A stretch of 64,000 nucleotides of DNA. Origin: a phage. This document shows positions 5,227 to 59,448 of this stretch, one piece after another. The translations under genes were made by a program, and so were the position numbers. The DNA lies in assembly GCA_024613925.1 (NCBI GenBank), contig GCA_024613925.1_4713.1; one strand, 5' to 3'. The notes below the pieces were generated by a model. It had not been told where the DNA came from. It searched no databases and worked only from the letters and a program-made list of their open reading frames with translations. The stretch's first letter is position 1. Each line of letters begins with the position of its first letter.

Positions 5227-7785
5227 TTACTGCTCTTCACGTTCCAGCAGATACTCGGAAGCGGTAATACCGTTTACCGTACGTACTGCTTTCAGACGAG
5301 TATCATCACTCAGAATCACGGTAACAGATTGCAGACCTTTTACTTTGGTTTCGAAGGTCTTGAACACCTGATCCAGCATACGAGCAATGCTTGGGTTGGT
5401 TGCAGCCGATGCGTGAGTGTAACCGCTCTGGTTCAGCTTCAGAATCTTGGCGTTGGTCGGTACGCGAACAACAACATGCGGACGCATCGCGAACACGCTG
5501 TGATTAAACCAGTAAGCATCGTTGCTATCTTCGTCGGTAACGATGTCCGGATTAACACGCATATCCTCGATAGCCGCATCCGCCAAACGACGTTCGATTT
5601 CGTCAGCATCCAGAGAGCCATCTTTCTCCAGTTCTGCACGATACTCGCTCATGGCAACCAGATGACGTTCACGATTCGCTGCGGATTTTTCGTGAGCTGC
5701 TTTCAGGTAGTCATGCATGTTGTACAGTTCAGCCATGGAAAGACGAATGTTCCACTGACCTTCGCCATCACGATTGCAGTAGAGACACTTCAGCATGTTG
5801 ACCCAGGTGTAGTAGCAATTGGAGAACTCATCTTCAATGAACTTCTGGTCCATTTTAAGATCGTGAATCAGCCAACCGGACAGTTCTCCGATATCATCAA
5901 CGAAGCTAGAGATGGTGGTTTCAGAGAAGTTCTTCGGTACGATACGTTTGATCAGCTTATTGACGTCTTTGGTCATGCTATCGTTCAGGAAATGCCAGAT
6001 ACGCAGAGGAATGACATCTCGATACTGTTGCATGATCTGACGATAAGCTTTGATATCGTCGCTACGACCTTTATCAATAGACAACGCATCCAGGAATTCA
6101 TGGATTGCATCCAGCTCTTTGTCGGTATAGGTTCCCAGATAGGAATTGACGGTGGCCAGGAATGCTAATGCGTCGTTTTGGTTAACGTCGGTGTTGGTCT
6201 GCTGAATGATCGCCACTGCGGCTTTAGTTTCAGCATCCTCAACGCTTGACGCTGCGATTGCATCGGTGACGGTAAACAGTTTCATTTCGCGCTGCTCACC
6301 GACAACGATTGGCTCACGCTGAACCGGCTTGTTAAGACTAACACGAACAACTTCTGCTTGCGCGATGCGATCCAGTTTTGCCATTTCCTGCTCTGCCATA
6401 CGACGAGCGGTTGGATCTGATTCAAGTTCGATGTATTCCACTTCTTCCTCCGTGAGGGATGTAATGTCAACAATGGTTTCATGAAGAATTCCGTTTTCGT
6501 CGATACGTGCCCGACGAGCGAAGTGCCTGAAGTCATACAACGTTGGCCAGCGACTATTAGGTGCGTAGTCTTTGGCTTTCAGACGCATCTGCATAAATTC
6601 TTCATGTTGAACAACACGACCGTAACGCTTAGCATCTTCGGTCGCATCAATTGGATTAACGGTCTTTGTTACCGTAGCGGAACGAGCCGTACGAATGGGT
6701 TCCGGTTTCACCTGCGCAGGTTCAGGTTGAACGGGTTTCTGCTGCCCAGCCTTAACATGCCATTCGGGCTCTTCGTACTGCTCAGCAAATTGCTCAGCCG
6801 CTGCAAAGATATCGTTGATACCACCAATATCTCCTTCAGGATTTGTCGAGTAAATCCGTGGTTGTGGTGCCTCGTAACGCGGCGCTGTAGCAGCAGGTGC
6901 ATCATCAACGATAGGATCGTCATCACCAACATCATACAAACGGTTGAACGCACAATCCTTCGAATCGATGTACGATGGCGCTTGTGGTTGAACAACCGTC
7001 GGCCGAGGTTGTGCGCCGTATCCTGGCGTTGTTGGAGCCATACCACGCATAACTGCCGGATTAGGCCGGTATTGCGGTTGTGGATAGGTTCCACCATACA
7101 TGGCATATGCAGGCTGTTGTGGTTGACCGTACCCGTTGCTAACCATTGCGCTTGCTTGCGGCCCACGATAAGTCATCCCCATCTGCATCACCTGCTGCTT
7201 CAAACCACGTGACTTCTGAGCGATTTGCGCTAGGCTTCCGCTTTTATTCAGCTGCGTGTACTTATTCGCGGCTTCCGGGTTAATGCGTGATAATTCAATC
7301 GCGCGATAATATTCCGGGTACTGATTAGGTTCAAAGAGCCACGTTACAAGATGATACAGCGCAACTGTGCTCACAGCAGCAGAGACGATCTGGTCGTCGG
7401 ACGCGTTCTGCGGCATCGGGTTGATGTAAGAGAACACGTTCCAACAACAGTCTTCAACAAGCGATTCCATCATCATGTCGTTATTGGTATAACGTGCGAC
7501 GAACTCGGTTTGTATTTTGTCTTGCTGAGCGAAGTCTTTCAGGACATTAAAGATAGCTTGACGGATTTTAACGATCGTCGCTTCTTGGGTGATGAAGTTA
7601 TAGTTCTGCTGATATGAGGGTTGTTGGTATTGTGGTGGTTGATAGGCGTTATTCGGGTATGCGCCGTACGGTGATTGCTGATACTGTTGCTGACGAACCT
7701 GTTCAGCCGCATAATTAACCGTGCTCGTATAAGGGTTTTCGCTATAGCCCATTTGTTGATACATGTTGTTACTACCGTTATACAT
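5227..7785 (-). CDS. hypothetical protein (852 aa) with Q/Y/P/N-rich low-complexity N-terminus and a second Q/P/Y/G-rich segment
   Basis: ATG with AAAGGA RBS; residues 1-65 and about 197-272 are dominated by Q, Y, P, N, G; the rest looks globular. Confidence 0.6.
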   Translation of the reverse strand: MYNGSNNMYQQMGYSENPYTSTVNYAAEQVRQQQYQQSPYGAYPNNAYQPPQYQQPSYQQNYNFITQEATIVKIRQAIFNVLKDFAQQDKIQTEFVARYTNNDMMMESLVEDCCWNVFSYINPMPQNASDDQIVSAAVSTVALYHLVTWLFEPNQYPEYYRAIELSRINPEAANKYTQLNKSGSLAQIAQKSRGLKQQVMQMGMTYRGPQASAMVSNGYGQPQQPAYAMYGGTYPQPQYRPNPAVMRGMAPTTPGYGAQPRPTVVQPQAPSYIDSKDCAFNRLYDVGDDDPIVDDAPAATAPRYEAPQPRIYSTNPEGDIGGINDIFAAAEQFAEQYEEPEWHVKAGQQKPVQPEPAQVKPEPIRTARSATVTKTVNPIDATEDAKRYGRVVQHEEFMQMRLKAKDYAPNSRWPTLYDFRHFARRARIDENGILHETIVDITSLTEEEVEYIELESDPTARRMAEQEMAKLDRIAQAEVVRVSLNKPVQREPIVVGEQREMKLFTVTDAIAASSVEDAETKAAVAIIQQTNTDVNQNDALAFLATVNSYLGTYTDKELDAIHEFLDALSIDKGRSDDIKAYRQIMQQYRDVIPLRIWHFLNDSMTKDVNKLIKRIVPKNFSETTISSFVDDIGELSGWLIHDLKMDQKFIEDEFSNCYYTWVNMLKCLYCNRDGEGQWNIRLSMAELYNMHDYLKAAHEKSAANRERHLVAMSEYRAELEKDGSLDADEIERRLADAAIEDMRVNPDIVTDEDSNDAYWFNHSVFAMRPHVVVRVPTNAKILKLNQSGYTHASAATNPSIARMLDQVFKTFETKVKGLQSVTVILSDDTRLKAVRTVNGITASEYLLEREEQ

Positions 7786-7819: not shown

Positions 7820-9616
7820 TCAATCGATTATGTCGTGATCGTTAATTTCTACAATTTCTTCATCGAATCGACCGACGTCTTTCTTCAAGCCTGCATTGGT
7901 TGCTGCAACGTCATTTGCAATTTGTGGGGTAATGATTAACCGACCGCGTTCGTCGATAGGTGCGTACATACTGAACTTCTGACGTCCGGTTGGTTCGGAG
8001 TGTGGAAGATTCAGATAGCTTGCACAGAACGGGATGGAACCACTAACCAAACGACTCTCGTCAGCCAATGCAGCACCGCCTGCGTTTTGGCTCTGGAGAA
8101 CAACATGCGTGCTCACTTTGAACAGCATGCAATCACCAGGTGACTGAATCGATGTTGCCACTTTTTCACGTTTGTCACGATTGCTCTGGATATTGAGAAT
8201 CGCTTCCGTTGCAACTTGATTTCGCAACGCCTTCTGTACATCGCGATTGGTCATCTCTTTACGGTTGTTCTGTCGTTTACCACGTTCCGTGGTTTTAAGA
8301 TGGAACCCCAGTTTAAAGATGCTCTTACGCACATCCTCCATGACATATTCCAACACCATCAATTCCTTACCGAACATCGTCGTGGTATCAACACGACTCA
8401 TTTCGATAGTGACATTATCAATCAGATACGCCATAAATTCGTAGAAGTCGTCGCAAGGAATATTTTCCTGTTTGAACTTCTTCTGTTGAATCTCGTCAAC
8501 GTAAAGATCGAGACTGTCGATGTGGTGGTTTACATCACGCAACAAACGCGCATCCGCATTGTTGTTATTAAAGATAATCAAACCGAGTAATGTACGCCAA
8601 TGGTCTGGCGCATTCGCGAACTCTTCAACCGGATAGTCTTCCGGAAAACGATCGTAATAACGGTCGATGAGATACAAGAATGCACCGACAAGGCCAAGAA
8701 CAATACGTTCCGTGCCTCCACGTCTTACAGCAATTTGAATATCAGGATGTTTGTAACGTACAGCGCTAGCGCTACGACTTTTACCGCTTTTGCTGATACT
8801 AAAGCCTTTAGGAATAACCCCCATGGTGCGATAGATTACCCATTGGTCACGCGGAAAATCACGTTCAGCAAGGTTCCGTCCGGTTACGGCTTCGACACCT
8901 GCAAAACGTCGGAAACACTCACCCACCCCGTACTTCGCAAAGAGATAGTGACCCAGTGTGGTTACGCTGGTGTGGTTGATGTTGTCGCCGTTCACTTTAC
9001 TTTGTTTGGTAAGATGATAGATTTGCGACCAGGGTAATGACAGGTAATGACGATAATCGATACCGGTCGGTGTATCATTGCTCAGGAACTGATACGGTGT
9101 ACGTTTAACCGTGATTTTGTCACGCGGAAGCATGATGAACGCCATGTCTTTCGTGTAACTGATTACAGGGTCAGCGAGCACCGCACTGAGAATGAAGTTC
9201 GCACCACGTAGACGCATTTTACCACCCTGACCTACTGCGGGCAATAGGAGAGGGTGTCGGATAATACAGTAGTCCTTTCCTGGTTCACGACGGTCACCTG
9301 ATTCCATCGCGCCGTACCAGCGGAATTCTAGCATCACCATAAACACATCGGAAGGCGCAAGGTCGAAGGTCAGCTTACCGCTATCCTTCCCTTTGGTTTT
9401 CTTTCCTCCGCTTAAGTAGTGGAACTGTTCGCGGGCCATACAGCGACGCAGGCCATGATACACCAGATCCTTAGGTAAACTATCTTTGCTGTTCCGCCAA
9501 AGACGATCAACATAGGACTCAACATCTTGCATCTTATCGACGACGATGTTGCGTGCTATCTTCTCGTTCATCTTCGGTGCAAGCTCAGCGACAGCTTTGC
9601 AGAATCTAGGATCCAT
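7820..9616 (-). CDS. hypothetical protein (598 aa)
   Basis: ORF-track start 9619 is GTG; the adjacent ATG at 9616 has AAGGAG 6 nt upstream. Confidence 0.6.
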   Translation of the reverse strand: MDPRFCKAVAELAPKMNEKIARNIVVDKMQDVESYVDRLWRNSKDSLPKDLVYHGLRRCMAREQFHYLSGGKKTKGKDSGKLTFDLAPSDVFMVMLEFRWYGAMESGDRREPGKDYCIIRHPLLLPAVGQGGKMRLRGANFILSAVLADPVISYTKDMAFIMLPRDKITVKRTPYQFLSNDTPTGIDYRHYLSLPWSQIYHLTKQSKVNGDNINHTSVTTLGHYLFAKYGVGECFRRFAGVEAVTGRNLAERDFPRDQWVIYRTMGVIPKGFSISKSGKSRSASAVRYKHPDIQIAVRRGGTERIVLGLVGAFLYLIDRYYDRFPEDYPVEEFANAPDHWRTLLGLIIFNNNNADARLLRDVNHHIDSLDLYVDEIQQKKFKQENIPCDDFYEFMAYLIDNVTIEMSRVDTTTMFGKELMVLEYVMEDVRKSIFKLGFHLKTTERGKRQNNRKEMTNRDVQKALRNQVATEAILNIQSNRDKREKVATSIQSPGDCMLFKVSTHVVLQSQNAGGAALADESRLVSGSIPFCASYLNLPHSEPTGRQKFSMYAPIDERGRLIITPQIANDVAATNAGLKKDVGRFDEEIVEINDHDIID

Positions 9617-9655
9617 CACACACTCCTTTCAGAAAGTTGCTTAAGCAGATTAAAG

Positions 9656-11092
9656 TTACTTTTTCGATGCCGCTTTCTCAAGAATCTTGAAAAAGGTCAT
9701 ACCTATACCGACAACGGCCGCAGTTATACTCGCAGCGGCTTTCCAAACATCGACGTTACGTTGACGTCGCGCTTCTTCCGCCTCACGTTGTCTTTTTGCC
9801 TCCTCATCACGTCGACGTATCTCAGCAGCAAACTCGTCGTGCTTACGTTTAGCTTCTTCGTCTCGACGACGAAGTTCAGCGACGAATTCTTCATGTTTGC
9901 GTTTAGCCTCGTCATCACGACGTTTTAAATCAGCTTGATAATCTTCGTGTATTTGTCTACGTAGATCATCTTGACGCTTCATTTCGGCTTGGTGTTGTTC
10001 CATCCTACGTTTTTGTTCGTCTTTAAGCTGATCGAGTTCGGCTTTATGTTGTTCATCGCGCAGCTTTGCGTCGGCGCGATGCGCCTCATGCATCTGTGCG
10101 ATAACTGCCTTGTGTTCATCCGCCATACGTCGCATTTCAGCCATCACCCCTTTAAGGGTTTCTTCTGATGCCTTACGTTCGTAGCTACGTTGGTCGAAAT
10201 CATTTTTGTAGGCTTCTTTTTGGATGGGGTCGCGCCAATGCAATGCCGATTCACGTGTCGGAAAAACATTGTACTTCCACATCTCTTTTTCCAAATCTTC
10301 GACCGGTACGAAGATGGAGTCATTATTCCCGAAGGTAACCAACATACCTGGCGCGCCTGCTCCATTCGTTGGTTTTATTTCGAACGCTTTCCCCAGCACG
10401 TTAACCCATAAGCTATACGGATTATGAAAGTCGGGTGGCGTCCAATGGATAGTGAGTTGCGTTCCGAGAATTCGGAAACCCTCTGTTTTTCCCGTCAAGC
10501 TCCGCGCGCACGTTGCGATGTAGGGGTGATCAATCCCTTTCGTAACGTGGTCTGCGCTTTTGTATTCTCCTTTAACTTTTACGATTGCCACGTTGATTTG
10601 CGCGACATAAGCGGGTTGATTAAAGTTCAACGTGTTGAGGTCAATTTGACATATTTCATCCAGCGTATCGTACCAGTCTTGCTGGTCTAATAGGCGCGGC
10701 ATTTTCTCGGTGTTAACAATACGACGGATATGCGGTTTCCTTATCGCGTAACCTGTGCCGTTTTTAACACGGAGTATATCCCGACGTCTACCCGCGTAGA
10801 CGAAGTTTCTGAATGCACCATTCGCATTAGATACGTCATGGCTGTCAACTATTACAGGACTACGAAATTTTGAACGTCGTACGATCCTGAATGTATTGCC
10901 GTCCTCAACCCTACCAGGAATGTACTGGAACATATTGTCGGAGGTGATCACCAACACGGTATGGCCAGATTCATTAATACATGCCCATCCTAATTCCAGG
11001 TCATATAACGGTTCAGCATAACCGTCAATGCGATAAGCGTGCGTACCATCCCACGGTTCGAACGCGGTATCACATATTGGCATGGAGGGCAT
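9656..11092 (-). CDS. hypothetical tail-anchored membrane protein with charged coiled-coil repeats
   Basis: ORF-track start is TTG; ATG at 11092 has GGAGG 6 nt upstream. Globular N-terminal ~330 aa, then K/R/E/D-rich helix with about 2.5 copies of an 18-aa unit (RRRDEEAKRKH-D/E-EF-A/V-AE), then one hydrophobic helix (AAASITAAVVGIGMTFFKIL) and a short basic tail. Confidence 0.6.
   Translation of the reverse strand: MPSMPICDTAFEPWDGTHAYRIDGYAEPLYDLELGWACINESGHTVLVITSDNMFQYIPGRVEDGNTFRIVRRSKFRSPVIVDSHDVSNANGAFRNFVYAGRRRDILRVKNGTGYAIRKPHIRRIVNTEKMPRLLDQQDWYDTLDEICQIDLNTLNFNQPAYVAQINVAIVKVKGEYKSADHVTKGIDHPYIATCARSLTGKTEGFRILGTQLTIHWTPPDFHNPYSLWVNVLGKAFEIKPTNGAGAPGMLVTFGNNDSIFVPVEDLEKEMWKYNVFPTRESALHWRDPIQKEAYKNDFDQRSYERKASEETLKGVMAEMRRMADEHKAVIAQMHEAHRADAKLRDEQHKAELDQLKDEQKRRMEQHQAEMKRQDDLRRQIHEDYQADLKRRDDEAKRKHEEFVAELRRRDEEAKRKHDEFAAEIRRRDEEAKRQREAEEARRQRNVDVWKAAASITAAVVGIGMTFFKILEKAASKK
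9812..9919. repeat. imperfect tandem repeat, 2 x 54 bp (plus a partial third copy downstream), encoding the 18-aa charged unit of the 9656-11092 protein
   Basis: Units of about 54 bp starting CGACG..., roughly 65 percent identical at DNA level and stronger at protein level. Confidence 0.5.
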
Positions 11093-11242
11093 CGTCAACC
11101 TCCATCTGATTGAAAACTATCACGCATAACGCATTTCCCTTTTCTTGTTCTTATCGAGCCGACAGCCGACGGTTTCAGCATCGTTCCTAGCGCGAGAACG
11201 ACCTTACGTGTTGTCTATGCCTTATTCATCGCAGGCGTCTGT

Positions 11243-11330
11243 CACCTAGGTAATGTAAGCGTCAAATTTTTTCTATTCGCAACGTAAACGGCATAGAAAC
11301 CTCCCCCAACCCTTACGGGCTGAGGGAGGC
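11243..11330. repeat. conserved intergenic cassette, copy C (CACCTAGGTAATGTA ... GCATAGAA ... stem-loop)
   Basis: Shares CACCTAGGTAATGTA with copy A and the GCATAGAA-plus-hairpin module with copies A and B; hairpin at about 11299-11329 (CCTCCCCC-AA-CCC-TTAC-GGG-CTGA-GGGAGG). Confidence 0.5.
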
Positions 11331-11428
11331 TGACTTATGTATCACGGTGCCGGATGAATGTCCGGTGCAATGAAACCATCCGCAACGTTGTCGTCAAGAA
11401 TATCGTCCAACGAAGCAGCTACGGTAGT

Positions 11429-13651
11429 TCAGTTAGTCTGAACAGGCAGCTTGATGTTTTCAGTGTAGACCTTACGCAGGTTCACAACGTTAATCAGACC
11501 CAGCAGCGGGCAGTTGTTAACGAAGCGGCAGCGCGGCTGAACCATGGTTTCTTTAGAAACCTGACCGTTACGGGTAACCTGAGCAACAGATACCAGTTCC
11601 GGTACGTACAGGAACATACCGAAGGTCAGCGGATCCGGAGAACCCTGGATACCACGAGACAGGGTCACGAAGATCTTATCACGCAGCAGGACGTTCGGGT
11701 TATCTACAACCACGAAGTTGAAGCTTACACCAACGGTACGGAAATCACCATCGGTCTGCAGGAACTGCGGGATGTAGTTGTCAGTTGCTACTACGCAACG
11801 CGGTTTCTCATCAGCGTTGGAAGACAGCAGCTGCAGAGCTGGCTGATAACCAGACTCGGAGTACATGCGATATGCCATCTCACGAATCACGTTCATGATC
11901 GCAGCGGACACTTCAGCACGACGTTCTGCAGTGGTGGTACCCTGAACAGATTTCTCCAGGTCCAGATTGATTTCTTCGAACCACGGACGGATCAGGTAAC
12001 GACCGAAACCTTCGATCTGGATGTCGCCGAACTGACGGAAGCGAGAGGTCGCAACCGCTTTCAGTGCGTCTTTGTAGCTGAACAGTTTCTCAACCATCAG
12101 GTTGTCGAAACGTGCGTTAGCAGCTTGGATCAGAACGTCCAGGTCGGCAGCGTTTTCTTCCCAATCCAGCGGACGAGGAATGGAGAACGGAGCCAGCAGG
12201 CCGATTGCGTAACGTTCTTGCTTCATGTTGAAGTCAAGGTGCTTACCGCGTTCACGACGGTTGCTGTTGTTACGACGGATACGCAGTTCGTAACCAACCA
12301 GTTTGAAGCTCAGGTCTTCAGCCAGTTGTTTGAACTCTTCGCTCTTACGCGGTTGTTCGATGTTGTCCTGATCAACCAGGCGATACAGTTCAGCGTTAGC
12401 GCCGTTAACACGCAGACCGGCTTTCTCTACGTTGGAAGAACCGTAAACTTCGATTGCCAGCTGAGCAGCGGATTTCGAATCGATGATGTCCTGCAGCGCT
12501 TCAGCTCGTGCACCTTTAACGTCAACGGTGTGCTCATCAACGAAGATGGAGTGGGTGTCGAACGCCAGGGTCATTTTGCGGAAGTCGCCTTCCAGGGATT
12601 TCTGGAAACCGTTGGTGATCAGACCAGATACGTCGAACGGTACGTAAGAGGTTTTGCTGTGCTTGGTAGATTTGATTTCCACCAGGATTTTGGTCAGCGT
12701 GATCTGGGCGTCCAGCGCATCGGTGTTGTCGCTGTAACCGTTAGCCAGGATGCTATCGTCTTCAGCAATACCGATCATGTCGATCAGTTTATCAACAGCC
12801 AGGTAAGACGTTTTATAAGTTACGCCTTTAATTTCGATGTTGCGCGGAGCAACGATAGCTTTGTCAACGAAGTACTGCGCGTTGGCATCGTCAGCACGAT
12901 AGATCGGATGCAGATCGGTCACGTCGTTGGACAGAACGTCGTTGTACATGAACGCATCCAGCAGCGGACGACGTACCCAATCAGCCGGAGTACCGTCAGC
13001 GTTACGACGCAGGTGGTTGAACACCAGCGGACGACGGAAAGATACGTCGTAACCGATCTGGTTCGGAGCCAGAACGATGGTGTTATACAGTTCGTTACCC
13101 ATGCGGCTCAGACGAGAAGCCTTCACGTTGAACACAACGGAGTACGGCATCATGTCACGCAGTTCTTTCTGGTCGTAAGACAGCTGAACCAGTTCTTCAG
13201 ATTCGCAACCGCAGGAATCAGCAGCCATCATGACGAAGTTAGAGCTGTCAACTTCACGGCCAGACGGAGTGGTGCTGATGTTCATGGAACGTGCTTGTTT
13301 AGCGTATTCCACCGGGTTACCATGAGCCAGCATGATCAGTGCTGCTGCACGAGCCTGCTGTGCGTTCATGGTGAACAGCTGTTCTTCAATACGCTGCTTC
13401 TCTTCCGGAGTGGTGGTTTCGAAGCCCAGCATGGACAGAACCGGTTCTTCTGCTTTACGGATGTCGCTGCTGAAGCTCTTAACATCCATTTCGTTAACCA
13501 GTTTGTCCATGGATTTGAAATCAACCTTAGAAGCAGATTCCATAGACAGGAAGGTGTTCTCCAGACCTTTGTCTGCTGGTTTGCTACCATTAGCGGTCAG
13601 GAACTGGCGAGTGGCCGCGACCTGTTGGCTAAGAAGGGTTTTATCATTCAT
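11429..13651 (-). CDS. major capsid protein candidate (740 aa; size as in phiKZ-type capsid proteins)
   Basis: Very strong codon bias (the antisense strand is stop-free for 766 codons), TGTAAAGGA RBS region, placed in a head-gene block next to the inner-body-like paralogs. No direct homology test was possible. Confidence 0.5.
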   Translation of the reverse strand: MNDKTLLSQQVAATRQFLTANGSKPADKGLENTFLSMESASKVDFKSMDKLVNEMDVKSFSSDIRKAEEPVLSMLGFETTTPEEKQRIEEQLFTMNAQQARAAALIMLAHGNPVEYAKQARSMNISTTPSGREVDSSNFVMMAADSCGCESEELVQLSYDQKELRDMMPYSVVFNVKASRLSRMGNELYNTIVLAPNQIGYDVSFRRPLVFNHLRRNADGTPADWVRRPLLDAFMYNDVLSNDVTDLHPIYRADDANAQYFVDKAIVAPRNIEIKGVTYKTSYLAVDKLIDMIGIAEDDSILANGYSDNTDALDAQITLTKILVEIKSTKHSKTSYVPFDVSGLITNGFQKSLEGDFRKMTLAFDTHSIFVDEHTVDVKGARAEALQDIIDSKSAAQLAIEVYGSSNVEKAGLRVNGANAELYRLVDQDNIEQPRKSEEFKQLAEDLSFKLVGYELRIRRNNSNRRERGKHLDFNMKQERYAIGLLAPFSIPRPLDWEENAADLDVLIQAANARFDNLMVEKLFSYKDALKAVATSRFRQFGDIQIEGFGRYLIRPWFEEINLDLEKSVQGTTTAERRAEVSAAIMNVIREMAYRMYSESGYQPALQLLSSNADEKPRCVVATDNYIPQFLQTDGDFRTVGVSFNFVVVDNPNVLLRDKIFVTLSRGIQGSPDPLTFGMFLYVPELVSVAQVTRNGQVSKETMVQPRCRFVNNCPLLGLINVVNLRKVYTENIKLPVQTN

Positions 13652-13800
13652 TGAAAGTATCCTTTACAGAATTAACTTATATAAGTCGGTCGATAGACCA
13701 TAGCGTACACGCGTGCATGCGCCACTATAGTATCAGTAAACACTTACCGTTATTGAGGTCGTGATACAACACTAAAAATGCCGCATAACTTTTCCCTACG

Positions 13801-17519: not shown

Positions 17520-17834
17520 CGTATTTTACCTTTCTATGTTAGGTGGGTTGCGGATAGAAGAATCAATGCATAGATTGATCGTTCTTTGTTAGAAATTATT
17601 GCCGAACCGGTTATGGTTATATGGTTGGTAGTACGCCATAGGCTCCGGTTTAGGGATTTCCATGGTCGGATTTTTGGAATTGATTGCCATCACGTAAATT
17701 GTTACGGGCGATACCGCGTGATTCATTTCGACGGCCACACGGTTGTTTGATCGATTGTTCAACTGGTACTGATTACGATTGGTTGATAACAGTAGAGCTA
17801 CTGCCTAAAACTCTACCGTTGTTTAGATACCGTA

Positions 17835-18695
17835 TTAGGATATACGGTGCATCGTCGGTGCGATTGGTCGTTGACCAAGGTAGAATGTATATCTCGGACG
17901 ATTTTTCGGTGCCTGGTTCGGTTGAGGATTCTTCGAATCGATAGCTAACACGTAGTACTGAAGTGTGGGGTTGAGTGTCGTCAGATAGTTTCTGATGAAC
18001 TCCTCGTTTAAACTTTCAGTCGGGGTTAGTATGTGCCCGTTGATTGTAACGACGGTACCATCGGAACGTATTTCACGAACAATGCACCAAGCCCCCGCAC
18101 CAACATCGGTAGGAATAGTCGTGCTGGGAGTAATGGTTAGATATTTATCGAAGAATTCGCAACAAAGAGGATGCATGTAGACCGTTACGGTATCATCTCC
18201 TGGCGAGGTTCTCTCTTTTGTTACAGGATCCTTCGTCGGTACAAATGTGTTAATTTTGGCTACCTTATCAGCATCTTCGTTCGCTTCGATATAAATCTCT
18301 GCTTTACCATGTACGCTCTGAGCTATACGACGTAACTGTTCGTATGTTTTCGGTGAGGTTAGCTGTACCCGACTGAGCAGCTCATCGTACCAAGCTTCGA
18401 AGGTGCTTGTTGGTATCTTAACGTATGCCTTATTTCCGGTTTCATTTTCATCCCGGAAGATAATCGCAACGGTATCAGGCTCATCAAGAGAATCCAGGTA
18501 AACAATGTGTTCGACCAACGCAGAAAACGTTTTACGTCCGGTTCCTCCATAGTACGGGTTTGCTGAATGAACCAGCCGCCAGTTACATGAAGTTTGGATA
18601 TGATCGAAGGCGTTGATCATGTTTTTACTGTAACGAAAAATTTCAGTAAAATATTCTTTACGTTCTTTACTAAGACGTTTGTATATCTTGGTCAT
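17835..18695 (-). CDS. hypothetical protein (286 aa), tandem paralog of 18749-19549
   Basis: AAGGAG RBS; C-terminal block VYMHPLCCEFFDKYLTITPSTTIPTDVGAGAWCIVREIRSDGTVVTINGH aligns with IYVHPECRTTYDRYLTIAGGTSAPSPVGIGEWRTIREVYPDGRIVTLCGR of the neighbour. Confidence 0.6.
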   Translation of the reverse strand: MTKIYKRLSKERKEYFTEIFRYSKNMINAFDHIQTSCNWRLVHSANPYYGGTGRKTFSALVEHIVYLDSLDEPDTVAIIFRDENETGNKAYVKIPTSTFEAWYDELLSRVQLTSPKTYEQLRRIAQSVHGKAEIYIEANEDADKVAKINTFVPTKDPVTKERTSPGDDTVTVYMHPLCCEFFDKYLTITPSTTIPTDVGAGAWCIVREIRSDGTVVTINGHILTPTESLNEEFIRNYLTTLNPTLQYYVLAIDSKNPQPNQAPKNRPRYTFYLGQRPIAPTMHRIS

Positions 18696-18748
18696 TTTTG
18701 TAGCTCCTTGATTAAAGTAAGGATGGATACGATTATTTATTATCGCTT

Positions 18749-19549
18749 TTAGTTTTTACCATTCCCCCAGCAGGGTTCTTCGTAAAAATGGTGCGGATAG
18801 CGATAATGAGAATTATTGGGTCTTCCTGTCGTTTCTTTCTGTGAGTCGACGACTAACGCGTAAAATAATTGGTGCTTGTCCATCATCGAAAAGTAAGAGG
18901 CAAGCAGTTTTTCGTTTAACGCGTCGCATGGTCGACAGGTACGACCACAAAGCGTTACGATACGGCCGTCAGGATAAACTTCACGGATCGTTCGCCATTC
19001 ACCGATACCAACCGGCGATGGTGCTGATGTGCCGCCCGCTATCGTTAAATATCGGTCGTACGTAGTACGGCATTCGGGATGAACGTAAATTGGCTGGGTA
19101 TTAGTACTGTCGTTTTCGGTTTGATGTTTACTCACGTATACCTCAAGGTAGATCGTTGGTAATCCGATTAGAACGCCGGTATCACGACGTTTTTTGGTAA
19201 TCCGAGGACGGATACTATCGAGCACGCTTTCCAGTTTTTCTGCGACTTCGTCAGCCGGTAATATATACCAGTATTGTGGTTCTGGGTCATCACCATGACT
19301 GAATAAGATACGACAGTCGGTGCTATTATTTTCTTCTACTTCAGGCGGGAAGATGATGGTGTGAACCGTATGACGTTCTGCGATATAAAATCCTTCGGGT
19401 CCCTCAGTTTTGGTAAGTGTAAAGGACCAGGGTGAACAATCTTCAGGTGATAAGCCTGCTAGGAAAAAGTTCGTCCGGATTGGCGCGTCCCATTTCGTGA
19501 TCATGTTAGCGTGACCAATAACACCTAACTTTTGATAAATATCTGTCAT
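18749..19549 (-). CDS. hypothetical protein (about 266 aa), tandem paralog of 17835-18695
   Basis: ORF-track start 19675 would run through the conserved hairpin; internal ATG at 19549 has GAGGA RBS 7 nt upstream. Confidence 0.6.
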   Translation of the reverse strand: MTDIYQKLGVIGHANMITKWDAPIRTNFFLAGLSPEDCSPWSFTLTKTEGPEGFYIAERHTVHTIIFPPEVEENNSTDCRILFSHGDDPEPQYWYILPADEVAEKLESVLDSIRPRITKKRRDTGVLIGLPTIYLEVYVSKHQTENDSTNTQPIYVHPECRTTYDRYLTIAGGTSAPSPVGIGEWRTIREVYPDGRIVTLCGRTCRPCDALNEKLLASYFSMMDKHQLFYALVVDSQKETTGRPNNSHYRYPHHFYEEPCWGNGKN

Positions 19550-19605
19550 GATTGTATCCTCGATTATTAAGAGAAATTTACAATGATAACAGTAACCGCT
19601 GTTAT

Positions 19606-19700
19606 CACCTAGGTAATGTAGTCGTGAAATAAACTGGGGTAATGCGAAATAAGACAGCATAGAACCCTCTCCCAACCCGTAAGGGAAGGGAGAGGGAATA
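19606..19700. repeat. conserved intergenic cassette, copy A (about 90 bp, near-identical to copy B), includes stem-loop 19665-19696
   Basis: CACCTAGGTAATGTAGTCGTGAAATAAACTG ... CGAAATAAGACAGCATAGAA-CCCTCTCCCAACCCGTAAGGGAAGGGAGAGGG-AATAT. Confidence 0.6.
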
Positions 19701-25568: not shown

Positions 25569-25618
25569 CGCAGATTCCTGTTTGAAAGATAAGATATCAC
25601 ATGATGGTCGACAGCATA

Positions 25619-25642
25619 AAGCCCACCCCGAAGGGCGGGCTG
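25619..25642. terminator. short GC-rich stem-loop followed by TTTATGCG (minus-strand reading: hairpin then TTATGCTGTC)
   Basis: GCCC-A-CCC cgaa GGG-C-GGGC with one mismatch; lies between the stop of 25657-29043 and the start of 25185-25568. Confidence 0.45.
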
Positions 25643-34215: not shown

Positions 34216-34263
34216 GTGTTGTCTCCAGTAATGATTCAAAAGATAAACCTGAGCGGCATAGAA

Positions 34264-34295
34264 CCCTCTCCCTTCCCTTACGGGTTGGGAGAGGG
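34264..34295. terminator. conserved-family stem-loop with the 14-nt core in the inverted orientation
   Basis: CCCTCTCCC-TT-CCC-TTAC-GGG-TT-GGGAGAGGG; flanks (GCATAGAAC ... GATATATC) match copy 19665-19696, whose core is the reverse complement. Confidence 0.55.
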
Positions 34296-58278: not shown

Positions 58279-58395
58279 CTCGACATCCTTTTATATTGGA
58301 TTGATTGCAATTGTCTTAAATAGATGATAAGATATTTTGCTCTTATCATTAAGGTAACGCTTACGCGTCGCGTTCATGATGTCATGCATCATGAA

Positions 58396-58486
58396 GGTAA
58401 TGTAGTCGTGAAATAAACTGCGTTAACACGAAATAAAACAGCATAGAACCCTCTCCCAACCCGTAAGGGAAGGGAGAGGGAATATT
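58396..58486. repeat. conserved intergenic cassette, copy B (near-identical to copy A), includes stem-loop 58449-58480
   Basis: GGTAATGTAGTCGTGAAATAAACTG ... CGAAATAAAACAGCATAGAA-CCCTCTCCCAACCCGTAAGGGAAGGGAGAGGG-AATAT. Confidence 0.6.
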
Positions 58487-59361: not shown

Positions 59362-59416
59362 GGAGTGCTTGTCCTATTTTTTATTTTCTGCACAGGATAA
59401 ATTCAACGGCATAAAG

Positions 59417-59448
59417 CCCTTCCCTGCCCTTATATGGGGCGGGAAGAG
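59417..59448. terminator. imperfect GC-rich stem-loop flanked on both strands by TTTATG
   Basis: CCCTTCCCTGCCC-ttatat-GGGGCGGGAAG. Confidence 0.45.

Follow-up and report, generated by a model that had tools for sequence, protein, structure and literature searches.

The gene, its operon and its expression

The window is a stretch of 64,000 nucleotides of DNA from a giant, Goslar-like phage of E. coli (GenBank assembly GCA_024613925.1, contig GCA_024613925.1_4713.1), and all the features described below lie on its minus strand. The open reading frame at 9656..11092 begins with an ATG at 11092, is preceded 6 nt 5' of that codon by the Shine-Dalgarno sequence GGAGG (11099..11103, read from the sequence), and encodes a protein of 478 amino acids. 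A 3-kb query (window positions 9000-12000) showed 98.5% nucleotide identity to Goslar, and the protein is 98% identical to Goslar gp040; the matching gene is annotated as hypothetical protein HOV27_gp040, and the bounds of the ORF agree. In Table S3 of Prichard 2023, Goslar gp040, phiKZ gp122 and RAY gp001* are the same core gene, cg35, which is labelled hypothetical and flagged there as specific to phages that encode chimallin; some 20 'hypothetical' genes, cg35 among them, are confined to nucleus-forming phages. The window gene is the Goslar-clade member of this uncharacterised family.

The relationship within the family is remote, because a HMMER profile of the Goslar-type N-terminal domain, run against 1.84 billion representative proteins, recovered just three clusters, which share one synteny, and no distant annotated relative. 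Two profile searches of a 5.8-billion-protein set, the first of which was flooded by charged-word candidates, added only phiKZ gp122, SPN3US-like and Erwinia-phage members; PHIKZ122 was recovered by a mixed-profile search. The window protein matches phrog_7727 (E 2.5e-5), RP12 and Xoo-sp14 match both phrog_7727 and phrog_7286, and gp222 of the phiKZ-like phage SL2 matches phrog_15024 and phrog_7286, a chain that connects the window protein through RP12 and Xoo-sp14 to phiKZ gp122. With Foldseek, 26 chimallivirus orthologs, all uncharacterised proteins, were found in BFVD at E <= 1e-3, and this database also holds metagenomic members of 523-549 aa. Neither the protein, nor the family profile, nor 20 aligned members matched anything in Pfam, among NCBI-style domains or in a PDB sequence search, and the window protein received no PHROG function or PADLOC-type annotation. 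A match of its C-terminal 120 aa to phrog_1893 (E 0.008) was weak, likely compositional, and was discarded. In the literature search, no paper paired Goslar with gp40, the name 'gp122' in phiKZ-related papers designated other proteins (PhiPA3 gp122, SPN3US gp122), and the reviews and early-infection (EPI) vesicle papers mentioned neither the cg35 family nor any transmembrane phage protein.

The upstream neighbour is the major capsid protein gene (PhiKZ_MCP, 11429..13651; Pfam PF25620, E 1e-216), which forms a separate transcription unit. The gene for the beta-N subunit of the non-virion RNA polymerase (nvRNAP) starts 36 nt downstream in the same operon (7820..9616; Goslar gp039, phiKZ gp123, cg36), as identified from the annotation, the nvRNAP listed in Goslar Table S4 and Prichard Table S3. 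The third gene of the operon (5227..7785) encodes an 852-aa protein that we treat as the positional equivalent of JADA (phiKZ gp124), on the basis of its position, of the Prichard ortholog column that lists PHIKZ124, and of a weak collinear BLASTP match to SL2 gp220 in one segment (E 4e-4); it gave no PDB or PHROG match. The order capsid, cg35, nvRNAP beta-N on the same strand was observed in the window and in P0015, P0017, Xoo-sp14, RP12, SL2, Eowyn, PA1C, SPFM11 and pVa-21. Indeed, cg35 lies directly upstream of the polymerase subunit gene in every examined lineage with the region preserved and complete in the record (PCH45, in which the post-capsid region is rearranged, and Deimos-Minion, whose record ends there, were left out of this count). 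Across lineages, the spacing between cg35 and the polymerase gene is 0-52 nt, whereas that between cg35 and the capsid gene is about 190-390 nt.

A GC-rich terminator-like hairpin after the capsid stop codon (11300..11329, from the sequence) parts the capsid unit from the window gene, and the motif TCTATGCCG follows it directly (11289..11297). This motif has six exact matches in the window, every one of them intergenic and minus-strand, versus 2.0 expected, and could belong to the terminator or represent a TATG start site of the phiKZ-late type, TATG being the phiKZ late consensus (PMC4666361). The late-promoter reading of the TATG at 11291-11294 was not adopted, because the arrangement of hairpin and TTTATGCCG is also present 3' of the capsid gene in distant chimalliviruses and may be a terminator. 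Closer to the gene, the motif TACATTACCT, preceded by an A-run (11248..11257), is a candidate early (virion RNA polymerase) promoter of the operon: it has three exact copies in the window and recurs at the corresponding position 5' of the P0015 and P0017 orthologs, which are 27% identical, with TATATTAC in the phiKZ-like SL2 and Eowyn. The early promoters of these phages have been described as AT-rich motifs of roughly 10 nt near -10 (PMC7598289). The TTACC of the upstream motif also resembles the phiKZ middle-promoter motif, and this counts against an early promoter.

In phiKZ, the gp122 mRNA is early and chimallin-independent, with PHIKZ122 reads of 3405, 4255, 2580, 2200 and 945 between 5 and 30 min and an increase in these reads when chmA is silenced, as for the polymerase gene PHIKZ074. 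By extension, the window gene is probably expressed early together with the RNA polymerase genes and not with the adjacent capsid gene. Its Goslar counterpart, gp040, is absent from the virion proteome, a list that includes even trace polymerase. Silencing of PHIKZ122 with ASO weakly reduced plaques and ChmA and strongly altered phage transcription at 30 min, as was also the case for PHIKZ124. The effect on transcription could be a polar effect on gp123, whose start lies 9 nt further on. This weak ASO phenotype and the description 'hypothetical, core, unique to chimallin-encoding phages' made up the prior knowledge on cg35.

The position of the gene immediately downstream of the capsid gene, within core block 5 with its many structural genes, could indicate a membrane-bound nucleator or tether of procapsids, an analogue of T4 gp20-gp40 with a head that would engage portal, scaffold or capsid protein at the inner membrane prior to the departure of the capsids for the phage nucleus. 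Absence from mature virions is expected of an assembly factor; the membrane is the reported site of capsid assembly in these phages (PMC10299810), and giant phages have no identified scaffold or initiator (PMC5694885). As is supposed here for the window protein, T4 prohead initiation (PMC5694885) relies on a phage-encoded, membrane-associated factor that virions lack and whose gene lies close to head genes; the two systems show no homology. In addition, the phiKZ ortholog mRNA behaves in the opposite way to that of the capsid gene, in all lineages the capsid and cg35 genes are parted by a terminator hairpin and a separate promoter-like motif, the tight linkage is with the polymerase gene rather than with head genes, and silencing perturbs transcription and causes only a weak plaque defect, that seen with the capsid gene being very strong. 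A role in procapsid assembly is for these reasons distinctly improbable.

The head and the C-terminal hydrophobic segment

The protein consists of a beta-rich N-domain (aa 1-283), a predicted helix (aa 289-475) and, within the end of this helix, an uncharged hydrophobic segment (aa 452-468). The same layout of a head predicted to be cytoplasmic, a charged helical stalk and a putative C-terminal anchor is conserved in positional orthologs of at least eight chimallivirus lineages, which supports the architecture proposed in the sequence-only reading. The phiKZ gp122, cg35 and RAY gp001 proteins share both this three-part architecture and the position between the capsid and nvRNAP beta-N genes; what distinguishes the Goslar clade is a stalk two to four times longer and made of 18-aa units.

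The N-domain (10244..11092) has an orphan fold and ends in a conserved (Y/F)x(F/Y)..(S/T)xxEA motif, as judged from alignments and low-confidence AlphaFold models. These models were obtained from a 10-sequence full-length alignment and a 20-sequence N-domain alignment, and in the two runs the domain was beta-rich with a pLDDT of about 54-56. The globular head of the earlier description corresponds to this domain, modelled as beta-rich at low confidence, and no binding function could be read from it because the model is too poor. Foldseek matches of the N-domain to Sm/Tudor-like barrels in the PDB (E > 0.6) were treated as noise.

The putative tail anchor, AAASITAAVVGIGMTFF (aa 452-468, 9689..9739; identified with the Kyte-Doolittle [KD] and Hessa scales), comprises 17 uncharged residues with small-xxx-small spacing, and is the sole hydrophobic segment of the protein by KD, all eight top windows being C-terminal (aa 447-474). 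The N-terminus is polar, and neither a signal peptide nor, by KD, a second TM segment was found. The segment reached a KD maximum of 1.76-1.82 (KD19 1.76, versus the usual cut-off of 1.6), a summed value of +1.4 kcal/mol on the Hessa scale, and, by adding up the Wimley-White octanol scale values, a total of about -1.5 kcal/mol. The Wimley-White scan had its optimum at aa 213-233, an aromatic, proline-containing beta region of the N-domain that is not a helix, and was therefore uninformative for the anchor. Hydrophobicity is borderline on every scale, and membrane insertion by AAASITAAVVGIGMTFF is marginally supported; of the single C-terminal TM helix proposed earlier, the lone hydrophobic segment at the right end of the protein was recovered, but its strength is marginal.

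Immediately before this segment lies the conserved juxta-anchor motif RQRNVDVWK (aa 443-451, 9740..9766), defined from the ortholog alignment, with an approximate family consensus R-K-(N/D)-(T/S)-x-(E/D)-(F/W/L)-(W/L)-K. It is kept in the Goslar-like, P0015, Xoo-sp14, RP12, SPN3US-like and pVa-21 orthologs and is looser in P0017. After the segment, the sequence ends in the short basic tail KILEKAASKK (aa 469-478, 9659..9688), followed by the stop codon (9656-9658). Four lysines are present in this tail, which would have to cross the membrane, a feature that counts against insertion.

Six other lineages carry anchor-like segments of 13-20 uncharged residues at the C-terminus; the run is of 13-17 residues in all except pVa-21, where it reaches 20 residues with a poor Hessa value (+8.7). 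Across seven lineages the segment is bracketed by W/F-K and K, and only hydrophobic or small substitutions occur within it. In contrast to the Goslar type, no clean hydrophobic anchor is present in the phiKZ and PhiPA3-like orthologs, their C-termini being amphipathic and interrupted by charged residues, and therefore a true transmembrane anchor is not universal in the family. The experimental data on the family were obtained in precisely these phages.

These features have to be weighed against the possibility that the protein is not a membrane protein, and that its C-terminal helix is an oligomerisation element or a peg into an assembly, for example the chimallin shell, with the stalk forming a straight, non-supercoiled parallel bundle of 18 residues per five turns. 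The marginal values on all three scales and the amphipathic phiKZ and PhiPA3-like C-termini agree with it, and the small-xxx-small spacing (read from the sequence) would suit helix-helix packing. Nevertheless, 16-17 uncharged residues placed between an aromatic-Lys pair and a Lys at the extreme C-terminus constitute a classic tail-anchor signature, the substitutions among lineages are lipid-tolerant and leave no conserved polar face, and the SPN3US-like ortholog stops exactly where the hydrophobic segment ends. We regard the non-membrane alternative as unlikely.

Tail-anchored proteins of the bacterial inner membrane include ElaB, YqjD and YgaM (DUF883), of about 100 aa, whose reported partner is the ribosome. 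They resemble the window protein in having a cytoplasmic charged helical region, one C-terminal hydrophobic helix, a short basic tail and no signal peptide; unlike it, they lack a large head domain, and the two groups share no sequence similarity (the Pfam search was negative). Phage membrane proteins are often lysis factors, and a single hydrophobic helix joined to a long helical domain is superficially i-spanin-like. A holin-, antiholin- or spanin-like protein for lysis or superinfection exclusion is nonetheless most improbable: the topology is the reverse of that of an i-spanin, with a large cytoplasmic domain that has no export signal and an anchor at the C-terminus; the neighbours are capsid and polymerase genes, with no endolysin or o-spanin nearby; the gene is core, specific to nucleus-forming phages, early in phiKZ, and in an operon with the polymerase; and the protein has no Pfam, PHROG-function or PADLOC-type annotation. 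The N-terminal or multiple TMDs, the periplasmic helix and the linkage to endolysin or o-spanin genes of the spanin/holin class are not found here.

The charged stalk and its 18-residue units

The stalk (aa 284-451, 9740..10243) is delimited by the AlphaFold helix and a charge-pair test, and its approximately 168 residues would span about 25 nm as a straight helix. AlphaFold predicted one continuous helix over aa 289-475, with pLDDT values of 72-87 for aa 320-440. Between aa 300 and 447, DEKR residues make up 54% of the sequence and the net charge is 0. At a lag of 18 residues, aa 301-447 gave 45 identities, whereas no lag in any of 20,000 shuffles exceeded 35. An array of six in-register 18-aa (54-nt) units was defined at aa 335-442 (9767..10090) from a register table, the shuffle test and the per-position profile; in the closest pair (aa 389-406 and 407-424, 9821-9928), 14 of 18 residues are identical. 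These results bear out the highly charged helix of imperfect 18-aa repeats described from the sequence alone.

Opposite charges at i/i+3,4 occur 83 times in the stalk (42.7 +/- 5.1 in shuffles, about 8 SD above them), while like-charge pairs occur 10 times (41.3 +/- 5.1), and neither value was reached in any of 5000 shuffles. This dense pairing of acids and bases is that of the ER/K type of single alpha-helix (SAH), known as a rigid spacer of set length from the lever extensions of myosin VI and X, caldesmon and INCENP. The stalk shares with these spacers a long unbroken helix, few hydrophobic residues and the lack of a heptad seam, but it differs from classic SAHs, in which roughly 75-80% of the residues are charged, in its 54% charged residues, in its many A, Q and H, and in an 18-periodic L/A/F stripe, as well as in being phage-encoded and fused to a putative membrane anchor.

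A coiled-coil check, suggested along with the first description of the helix, gave a negative result. Occupancy of the a/d positions in the best heptad phase was 26% (38% with Ala counted), and the Fourier amplitude of hydrophobicity peaked at 3.63 residues per turn (0.535) rather than at 3.5 (0.27), values by which a canonical heptad coiled coil was ruled out. The same peak would be compatible with the non-supercoiled bundle considered above, as would the distribution of hydrophobic residues: positions 1, 8 and 15 of the 18-mer are hydrophobic or Ala in 67% of cases, forming a narrow stripe, and in the best-conserved units these positions, occupied by L/I, A and F, are confined to an arc of 40 degrees next to H12 and V/A16. 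Against the bundle, LIVMFWY residues represent only 16% of the stalk and the i/i+4 salt-bridge pattern is extreme, as would suit a single helix.

In the DNA, the repetition is real but weak and resides mainly at the protein level. Identity at a lag of 54 nt was 47%, versus 17-36% at neighbouring lags, and the best pair of units shares 36 of 54 nucleotides (67%). TRF with a minimum score of 30 reported no tandem repeat, and exact direct repeats in the DNA that encodes the stalk reach 8 nt at most. The 54-bp DNA repeats first placed at 9812-9919 are the same pair as 9821-9928, but 9 nt out of register and with 36/54 identity at best. A slippage-prone, contingency-type tandem repeat was rejected, there being no long near-identical copies.

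The number of units varies among related phages, as had been anticipated. Close relatives encode proteins of 460, 478, 489 and 507 aa that differ by exact 18-aa indels plus one 11-aa indel, resulting in stalks of 150, 168, 179 and 197 residues in phages whose flanks and N-domain are for the most part 93-100% identical. Stalks measure 150-197 aa in Goslar-like phages versus 46-126 aa in other lineages, where periods of 18 or 11 also occur. The indels lie in a hypervariable, recombining central cassette (9800..10160, approximate bounds, from sliding nucleotide identity and the indel alignment), in which identity falls to 46-78%, compared with 93-100% in the majority of 90-nt windows across the flanks and N-domain and about 88% in one intergenic window. 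One deletion junction lies between short 'EQH(K/Q)AE' direct repeats (9983-10000 and 10037-10054). The variation looks like the outcome of old gains and losses of units together with recombinational swapping of the stalk cassette between lineages. Of the two routes to length change suggested earlier, slippage or recombination, the second fits this picture, but slippage in the present day is unlikely because the DNA copies are at best 67% identical, with no exact repeat longer than 8 nt.

A stalk without functional meaning would also vary: the job of the protein might reside in the N-domain alone, for instance as a chaperone of polymerase assembly, and the helix might be a linker that drifts, duplicates and recombines neutrally. 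The four-fold range of lengths across the family (46-197 aa), the low sequence conservation, the central cassette being the most divergent part of the locus, and the lack of a known function for the stalk are in line with this explanation. However, the retention of 14 of 18 residues with just 36 of 54 nucleotides in the best pair indicates selection on the protein sequence, and the charge pattern is far beyond what composition gives. Moreover, all three observed indels are of 18 or 11 residues and thus helix-commensurate, with both periods recurring in other lineages, and the membrane-proximal unit and the juxta-anchor motif hardly change even where overall identity drops to 27%. A purely neutral stalk appears rather improbable.

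A possible tether at early-infection membranes

We tentatively favour, with somewhat less than even confidence, an early tail-anchored tether that would keep a partner in the cytoplasm at a fixed spacing from the inner membrane or that of the early vesicle. The protein would be synthesised early from its own promoter, together with the non-virion RNA polymerase subunit and the JADA-like protein, and its C-terminal hydrophobic helix would insert post-translationally into a cytoplasm-facing membrane, either the inner membrane or an EPI vesicle derived from it. The beta-rich head would then be held in the cytoplasm at the tip of a stiff, salt-bridged ER/K-type helix. This stalk would act as a spacer whose length shifts in helix-commensurate steps of 18 residues (five turns, about 2.7 nm) or 11 residues (three turns), and, since its length changes in such quanta, it could set the distance from the membrane of the head and its bound partner while roughly keeping their rotational register. 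The leading candidate partners are the operon neighbours, the nascent polymerase and/or JADA.

Golgins and SNAREs, the tail-anchored tethers of eukaryotes, also combine a C-terminal anchor with an extended helical rod that captures or positions a partner off the membrane. Their rods are heptad coiled coils, a pattern that the window stalk does not show; there is no homology, and no role in fusion is implied by the comparison.

In nucleus-forming phages, the injected genome resides first in a lipid vesicle and is then passed to the protein shell. JADA, an Avs5 activator, was found at EPI vesicles in a phiKZ-like phage; expressed alone it is cytosolic, and it relocates to these vesicles upon infection, although how a soluble protein reaches them is left unexplained (PMC12931631). 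The searchable papers name no phage-encoded membrane protein for the vesicle stage. Given that cg35 is early in phiKZ and that most lineages carry the tail-anchor signature, the family is a concrete candidate for this missing membrane link. The cg35 and JADA genes belong to the same conserved early string, gp122-gp123-gp124, are largely restricted to Chimalliviridae, and have similar transcription phenotypes upon silencing; on the other hand, they encode different proteins with different folds, JADA has no hydrophobic anchor, and vesicle localisation has been demonstrated for JADA only.

A more specific version of the tether, which we consider doubtful, would make cg35 an integral membrane component of the EPI-vesicle stage, translated from the earliest transcripts, whose head recruits JADA and/or the nascent polymerase, or the first chimallin patches, and keeps them at a distance given by the stalk, thereby coupling the vesicle to the protein nucleus that succeeds it. 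If so, the stalk alleles, swapped and quantised in length, would amount to natural variants of a 'molecular ruler', and stalk diversity might be maintained by host sensors that survey the vesicle surface. If the segment is not a membrane anchor, what is left of the finding is an orphan core protein with an unusual charged helix of modular build. The stalks of 150, 168, 179 and 197 residues provide a ready allelic series for asking whether the distance from the membrane matters.

Charged stalk and its 18-residue units

The gene at 9656-11092 (minus strand; ATG start with GGAGG upstream) encodes 478 aa and lies in a 3-kb region with 98.5% identity to a nucleus-forming jumbo phage of the Chimalliviridae, Escherichia phage vB_EcoM_Goslar; there the equivalent gene, gp040, is annotated as 'hypothetical protein'. 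The sequence-only reading described the product as a tail-anchored protein with a charged repeat helix; the feature as a whole was confirmed, and has more structure than that reading saw. The charged helix does follow the N-terminal domain (N-domain): D, E, K and R make up 54% of aa 300-447 with a net charge of zero, and AlphaFold predicted one unbroken helix over aa 289-475. At spacings i/i+3 and i/i+4 there are 83 opposite-charge pairs (42.7 +/- 5.1 in shuffles) and 10 like-charge pairs (41.3 +/- 5.1). Large hydrophobics account for 16% of this stalk, heptad a/d occupancy is 26%, and the hydrophobic periodicity peaks at 3.63, not 3.5, residues per turn. In its excess of opposite-charge pairs and its few large hydrophobics the stalk resembles ER/K single alpha-helices, and its pattern, judged by sequence, is of this type and not that of a canonical coiled coil. 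A narrow L/A/F stripe runs along it with an 18-residue period, with which a straight parallel bundle is possibly compatible.

The proposed 18-aa repeats were borne out by 45 lag-18 identities in aa 301-447 (the best lag across 20,000 shuffles gave 35) and by six in-register units at aa 335-442, the youngest pair of which (aa 389-406 and 407-424) is identical at 14/18 positions. The corresponding 54-bp DNA repeats are present but weak: DNA identity at lag 54 is 47%, the best unit pair matches at 36/54 positions, the longest exact direct repeat in the stalk DNA is 8 nt, and TRF reported no tandem repeat. A clear protein repeat over such a faint DNA repeat indicates that the amino-acid repeat has been kept despite extensive synonymous divergence. 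Significant lag-18 periodicity was also observed in the stalks of two homologs about 27% identical to the window protein (P0015 and P0017) and of two Erwinia-phage-type proteins, and lag-11 periodicity in those of Eowyn and P0028. Stalks of Goslar-like phages measure 150-197 aa and those of other lineages 46-126 aa. Even where overall identity is 27%, the last unit and the motif before the C-terminal segment are nearly invariant. Three metagenomic 'Myoviridae sp.' members in BFVD (A0A8S5USF1, A0A8S5MWF5, A0A8S5P297) reach 523-549 aa, above every Goslar-like allele, and may have still longer stalks or additional domains.

Lengths of 460, 478, 489 and 507 aa were found among close homologs, which come from metagenomes and from assemblies of Salmonella and E. 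coli. The 460-aa form lacks one 18-aa unit (HKAELDQLKDEQKRRMEQ, lost between two short EQH(K/Q)AE direct repeats), the 507-aa form has gained a different one, and an 11-aa insertion is common to the 489- and 507-aa forms; all three indels are of 18 or 11 residues. Eighteen residues make five alpha-helical turns, and 11 make three. We infer that stalk length evolves by helix-commensurate steps, which would change its reach by ~2.7 or 1.65 nm and roughly retain rotational register. In sliding-window comparisons, identity between the window phage and that with the 507-aa form was 93-100% over most of the N-domain, C-terminal anchor, polymerase gene and 3' end of the capsid gene, dropping to ~88% in a single intergenic window; the 460- and 489-aa phages were 92-100% identical in those same flanking parts. 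Across the central stalk (about 9800-10160) identity fell to 46-78% within these pairs, and the 507- and 489-aa alleles were closer to each other (76-91%). Together, these values indicate that the central stalk is a cassette exchanged between lineages; as read from the alignments, each of two stalk allele types occurs on both of two backbone types, and every type has an 18-aa indel of its own. The expectation that repeat number could vary by slippage or recombination held for the variation itself; slippage would not be supported by DNA repeats as diverged as the present ones. Some NCBI assemblies that carry the labels Salmonella enterica and E. coli O157 contain Goslar-like contigs of ~244 kb (proteins P0006, P0012, P0013, P0014); in several of these records the annotated protein begins at an internal Met and has 327 or 345 aa, its N-terminal 133 residues being missed.

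C-terminal segment and the cg35 family

By Kyte-Doolittle, the sole hydrophobic stretch is aa 452-468 (AAASITAAVVGIGMTFF), with W-K before it and KILEKAASKK after it; its hydrophobicity was marginal by every scale tried. Of the single C-terminal TM helix claimed earlier, the one hydrophobic C-terminal stretch therefore stands, and the TM call is borderline. An uncharged run of 13-17 mostly hydrophobic or small residues is found at this place in Goslar-like phages, P0015, P0017, Xoo-sp14, RP12, Eowyn and SPN3US-like phages; that of pVa-21 has 20 residues and is far less hydrophobic (Hessa +8.7). A conserved motif, R-K-(N/D)-(T/S)-x-(E/D)-(F/W/L)-(W/L)-K, precedes the run, and the protein end or a short basic tail follows it. 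Substitutions across lineages are hydrophobic for hydrophobic, and no conserved polar face was found in the anchor among the lineages aligned. Judged by sequence, these features are those of a tail anchor, with which most of the protein would lie in the cytoplasm. A serious rival is a non-membrane protein that forms an oligomeric bundle or docks into another assembly, as suggested by the marginal hydrophobicity and by the way in which the orthologs of Pseudomonas phages end: in phiKZ and PhiPA3-like phages the corresponding segment contains charged residues and looks amphipathic. These residues, and the Ala/Gly-rich, marginal character of the Goslar-type segment, call for caution over the tail anchor.

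An N-domain profile searched against 1.84 billion representative proteins retrieved three clusters only, in all of which the gene is flanked by a phiKZ-type capsid gene on one side and a ~600-aa polymerase-like gene on the other. The same position in Xoo-sp14, RP12, SL2, Eowyn, PhiPA3-like, SPN3US-like and pVa-21 phages always holds a 334-384-aa protein. The orthologs, whose groups were chained by PHROG profiles, share a 225-300-aa N-domain with a terminal (Y/F)x(F/Y)..EA motif, a charged helix and a C-terminal hydrophobic segment. Foldseek against BFVD returned 26 chimallivirus 'uncharacterized proteins' and no other match at E <= 1e-3. A core-genome study of nucleus-forming phages lists the family as cg35 (Goslar gp040 = phiKZ gp122 = RAY gp001), 'hypothetical', and flags it among genes unique to chimallin-encoding phages; it is therefore already catalogued, though functionally blank and uncharacterised. 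No published account of its architecture was found in the searchable literature. In Serratia phage PCH45 (L012, 5487-8000), several small ORFs of 110-220 aa lie behind the capsid gene, without a single 330-480-aa gene and then a polymerase subunit; this lineage may have a rearranged or split gene string.

Transcription unit and timing

Upstream of gp040, on the same strand, lies the phiKZ-type major capsid gene (PF25620, E 1e-216), and 36 nt downstream a ~598-aa subunit labelled non-virion RNA polymerase (nvRNAP) in the Goslar virion study. A 766-aa ORF (11354-13654, plus strand) is antisense to the whole capsid gene; it exceeds the capsid ORF in length, misled a length-greedy gene caller and is probably a by-product of codon composition.

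The capsid stop codon is followed by a strong hairpin and, 40 nt on, by TACATTACCT with an A-run before it. Intergenic cassettes of a GC-rich hairpin (CCCTCTCCC..GTAA..GGGAGAGGG type) with TYTATGCYG directly after it lie on the minus strand at 11289-11329, 19655-19690, 25612-25640, 34254-34290, 58439-58475 and 59407-59445; TYTATGCYG has six exact matches in the window (2.0 expected), all on the gene strand. A hairpin with TTTATGCCG likewise lies behind the capsid gene in Xoo-sp14, RP12, Eowyn and the phiKZ-like SL2, and the cassette may serve as a terminator signature across the family, as a TATG start site of the phiKZ late type, or as both. The exact 10-mer TACATTACCT occurs at 11248-11257, 19611-19620 and 58395-58404 (minus strand), ~41 nt downstream of three cassettes and within a ~100-nt block conserved in the alignment of these copies (A3), and also in loci from other phages (L002, 105-114 of the spacer; L005, ~165-175). 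It is kept at the same place in phages with only 27%-identical proteins and is therefore a candidate for an early promoter in Goslar-like phages. Upstream of the orthologs in P0015, P0017, RP12, SL2 and Eowyn, the layout recurs with an identical or closely similar motif of 8-10 nt, and fits jumbo-phage early promoters as described (PMC7598289). This layout, together with a spacing of 0-52 nt to the polymerase gene in all lineages, sets the gene transcriptionally apart from the capsid gene and ties it to the polymerase gene. The hairpin/TATG/TACATTACCT cassette also precedes a stretch at ~17,800-19,550 (~1.8-2.5 kb, between the gp047 and gp048 equivalents) that is missing from Goslar and carries two orphan ORFs of 286 and 308 aa without a Pfam match; it resembles an inserted accessory module.

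In phiKZ, normalised gp122 reads peak at 5-10 min, are about four- to seven-fold lower by 30 min and continue upward under chimallin silencing, a pattern like that of the early polymerase gene PHIKZ074 and opposite to that of the capsid gene PHIKZ120. The nvRNAP subunits, gp123 included, are early-gene products (PMC4666361), and gp040 would likewise be early in the window phage. It is missing from the Goslar virion proteome, though the trace contaminants nvRNAP gp039 and DNA polymerase are present there. A role in capsid assembly, suggested by the adjoining capsid gene, is disfavoured, since both the timing and the structure of the transcription unit oppose it. A phiKZ antisense screen classed gp122 as 'core genome, uncharacterized', scored its effects on plaques and on the level of ChmA (chimallin) as weak, and named its silencing beside that of ChmA, nvRNAP, PicA and gp124 as having a strong effect on phage transcription at 30 min; polarity on gp123 is a possible cause.

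A conserved gene string with JADA

The gene right after the polymerase subunit, phiKZ gp124, has since been characterised as JADA, which is early, abundant and largely restricted to Chimalliviridae. JADA alone is diffuse; upon infection it forms foci at early-infection vesicles, where it is sensed by the Avs5 defence. Its positional equivalent in the window is an 852-aa ORF (5227-7785, minus strand), which the core-genome table groups with PHIKZ124 and which gave one weak collinear BLASTP segment; profile and PDB searches with it returned no match. From gene order, the conserved string consists of cg35 with its putative tail anchor, nvRNAP beta-N and JADA, in that order.

Read most economically, cg35 would be an early membrane-anchored spacer at the inner membrane or at a vesicle derived from it, with its operon neighbours as candidate partners. 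The hydrophobic C-terminus would then be inserted in the vesicle membrane, and the shared operon suggests that cg35 may bind JADA or the polymerase. What is new is the conserved architecture of a stalk plus putative tail anchor, the quantised, recombining stalk of the Goslar clade, and the tie of cg35 to an early vesicle-associated gene string.

Like phiKZ-like gp124, the 852-aa protein contains a long low-complexity linker rich in Q, P, G and Y, at about aa 1-60 and 190-265. Purified Goslar virions contain roughly 25 copies of the orthologous gp038, and JADA is described as early-expressed; the JADA-position protein may be both packaged and made early.
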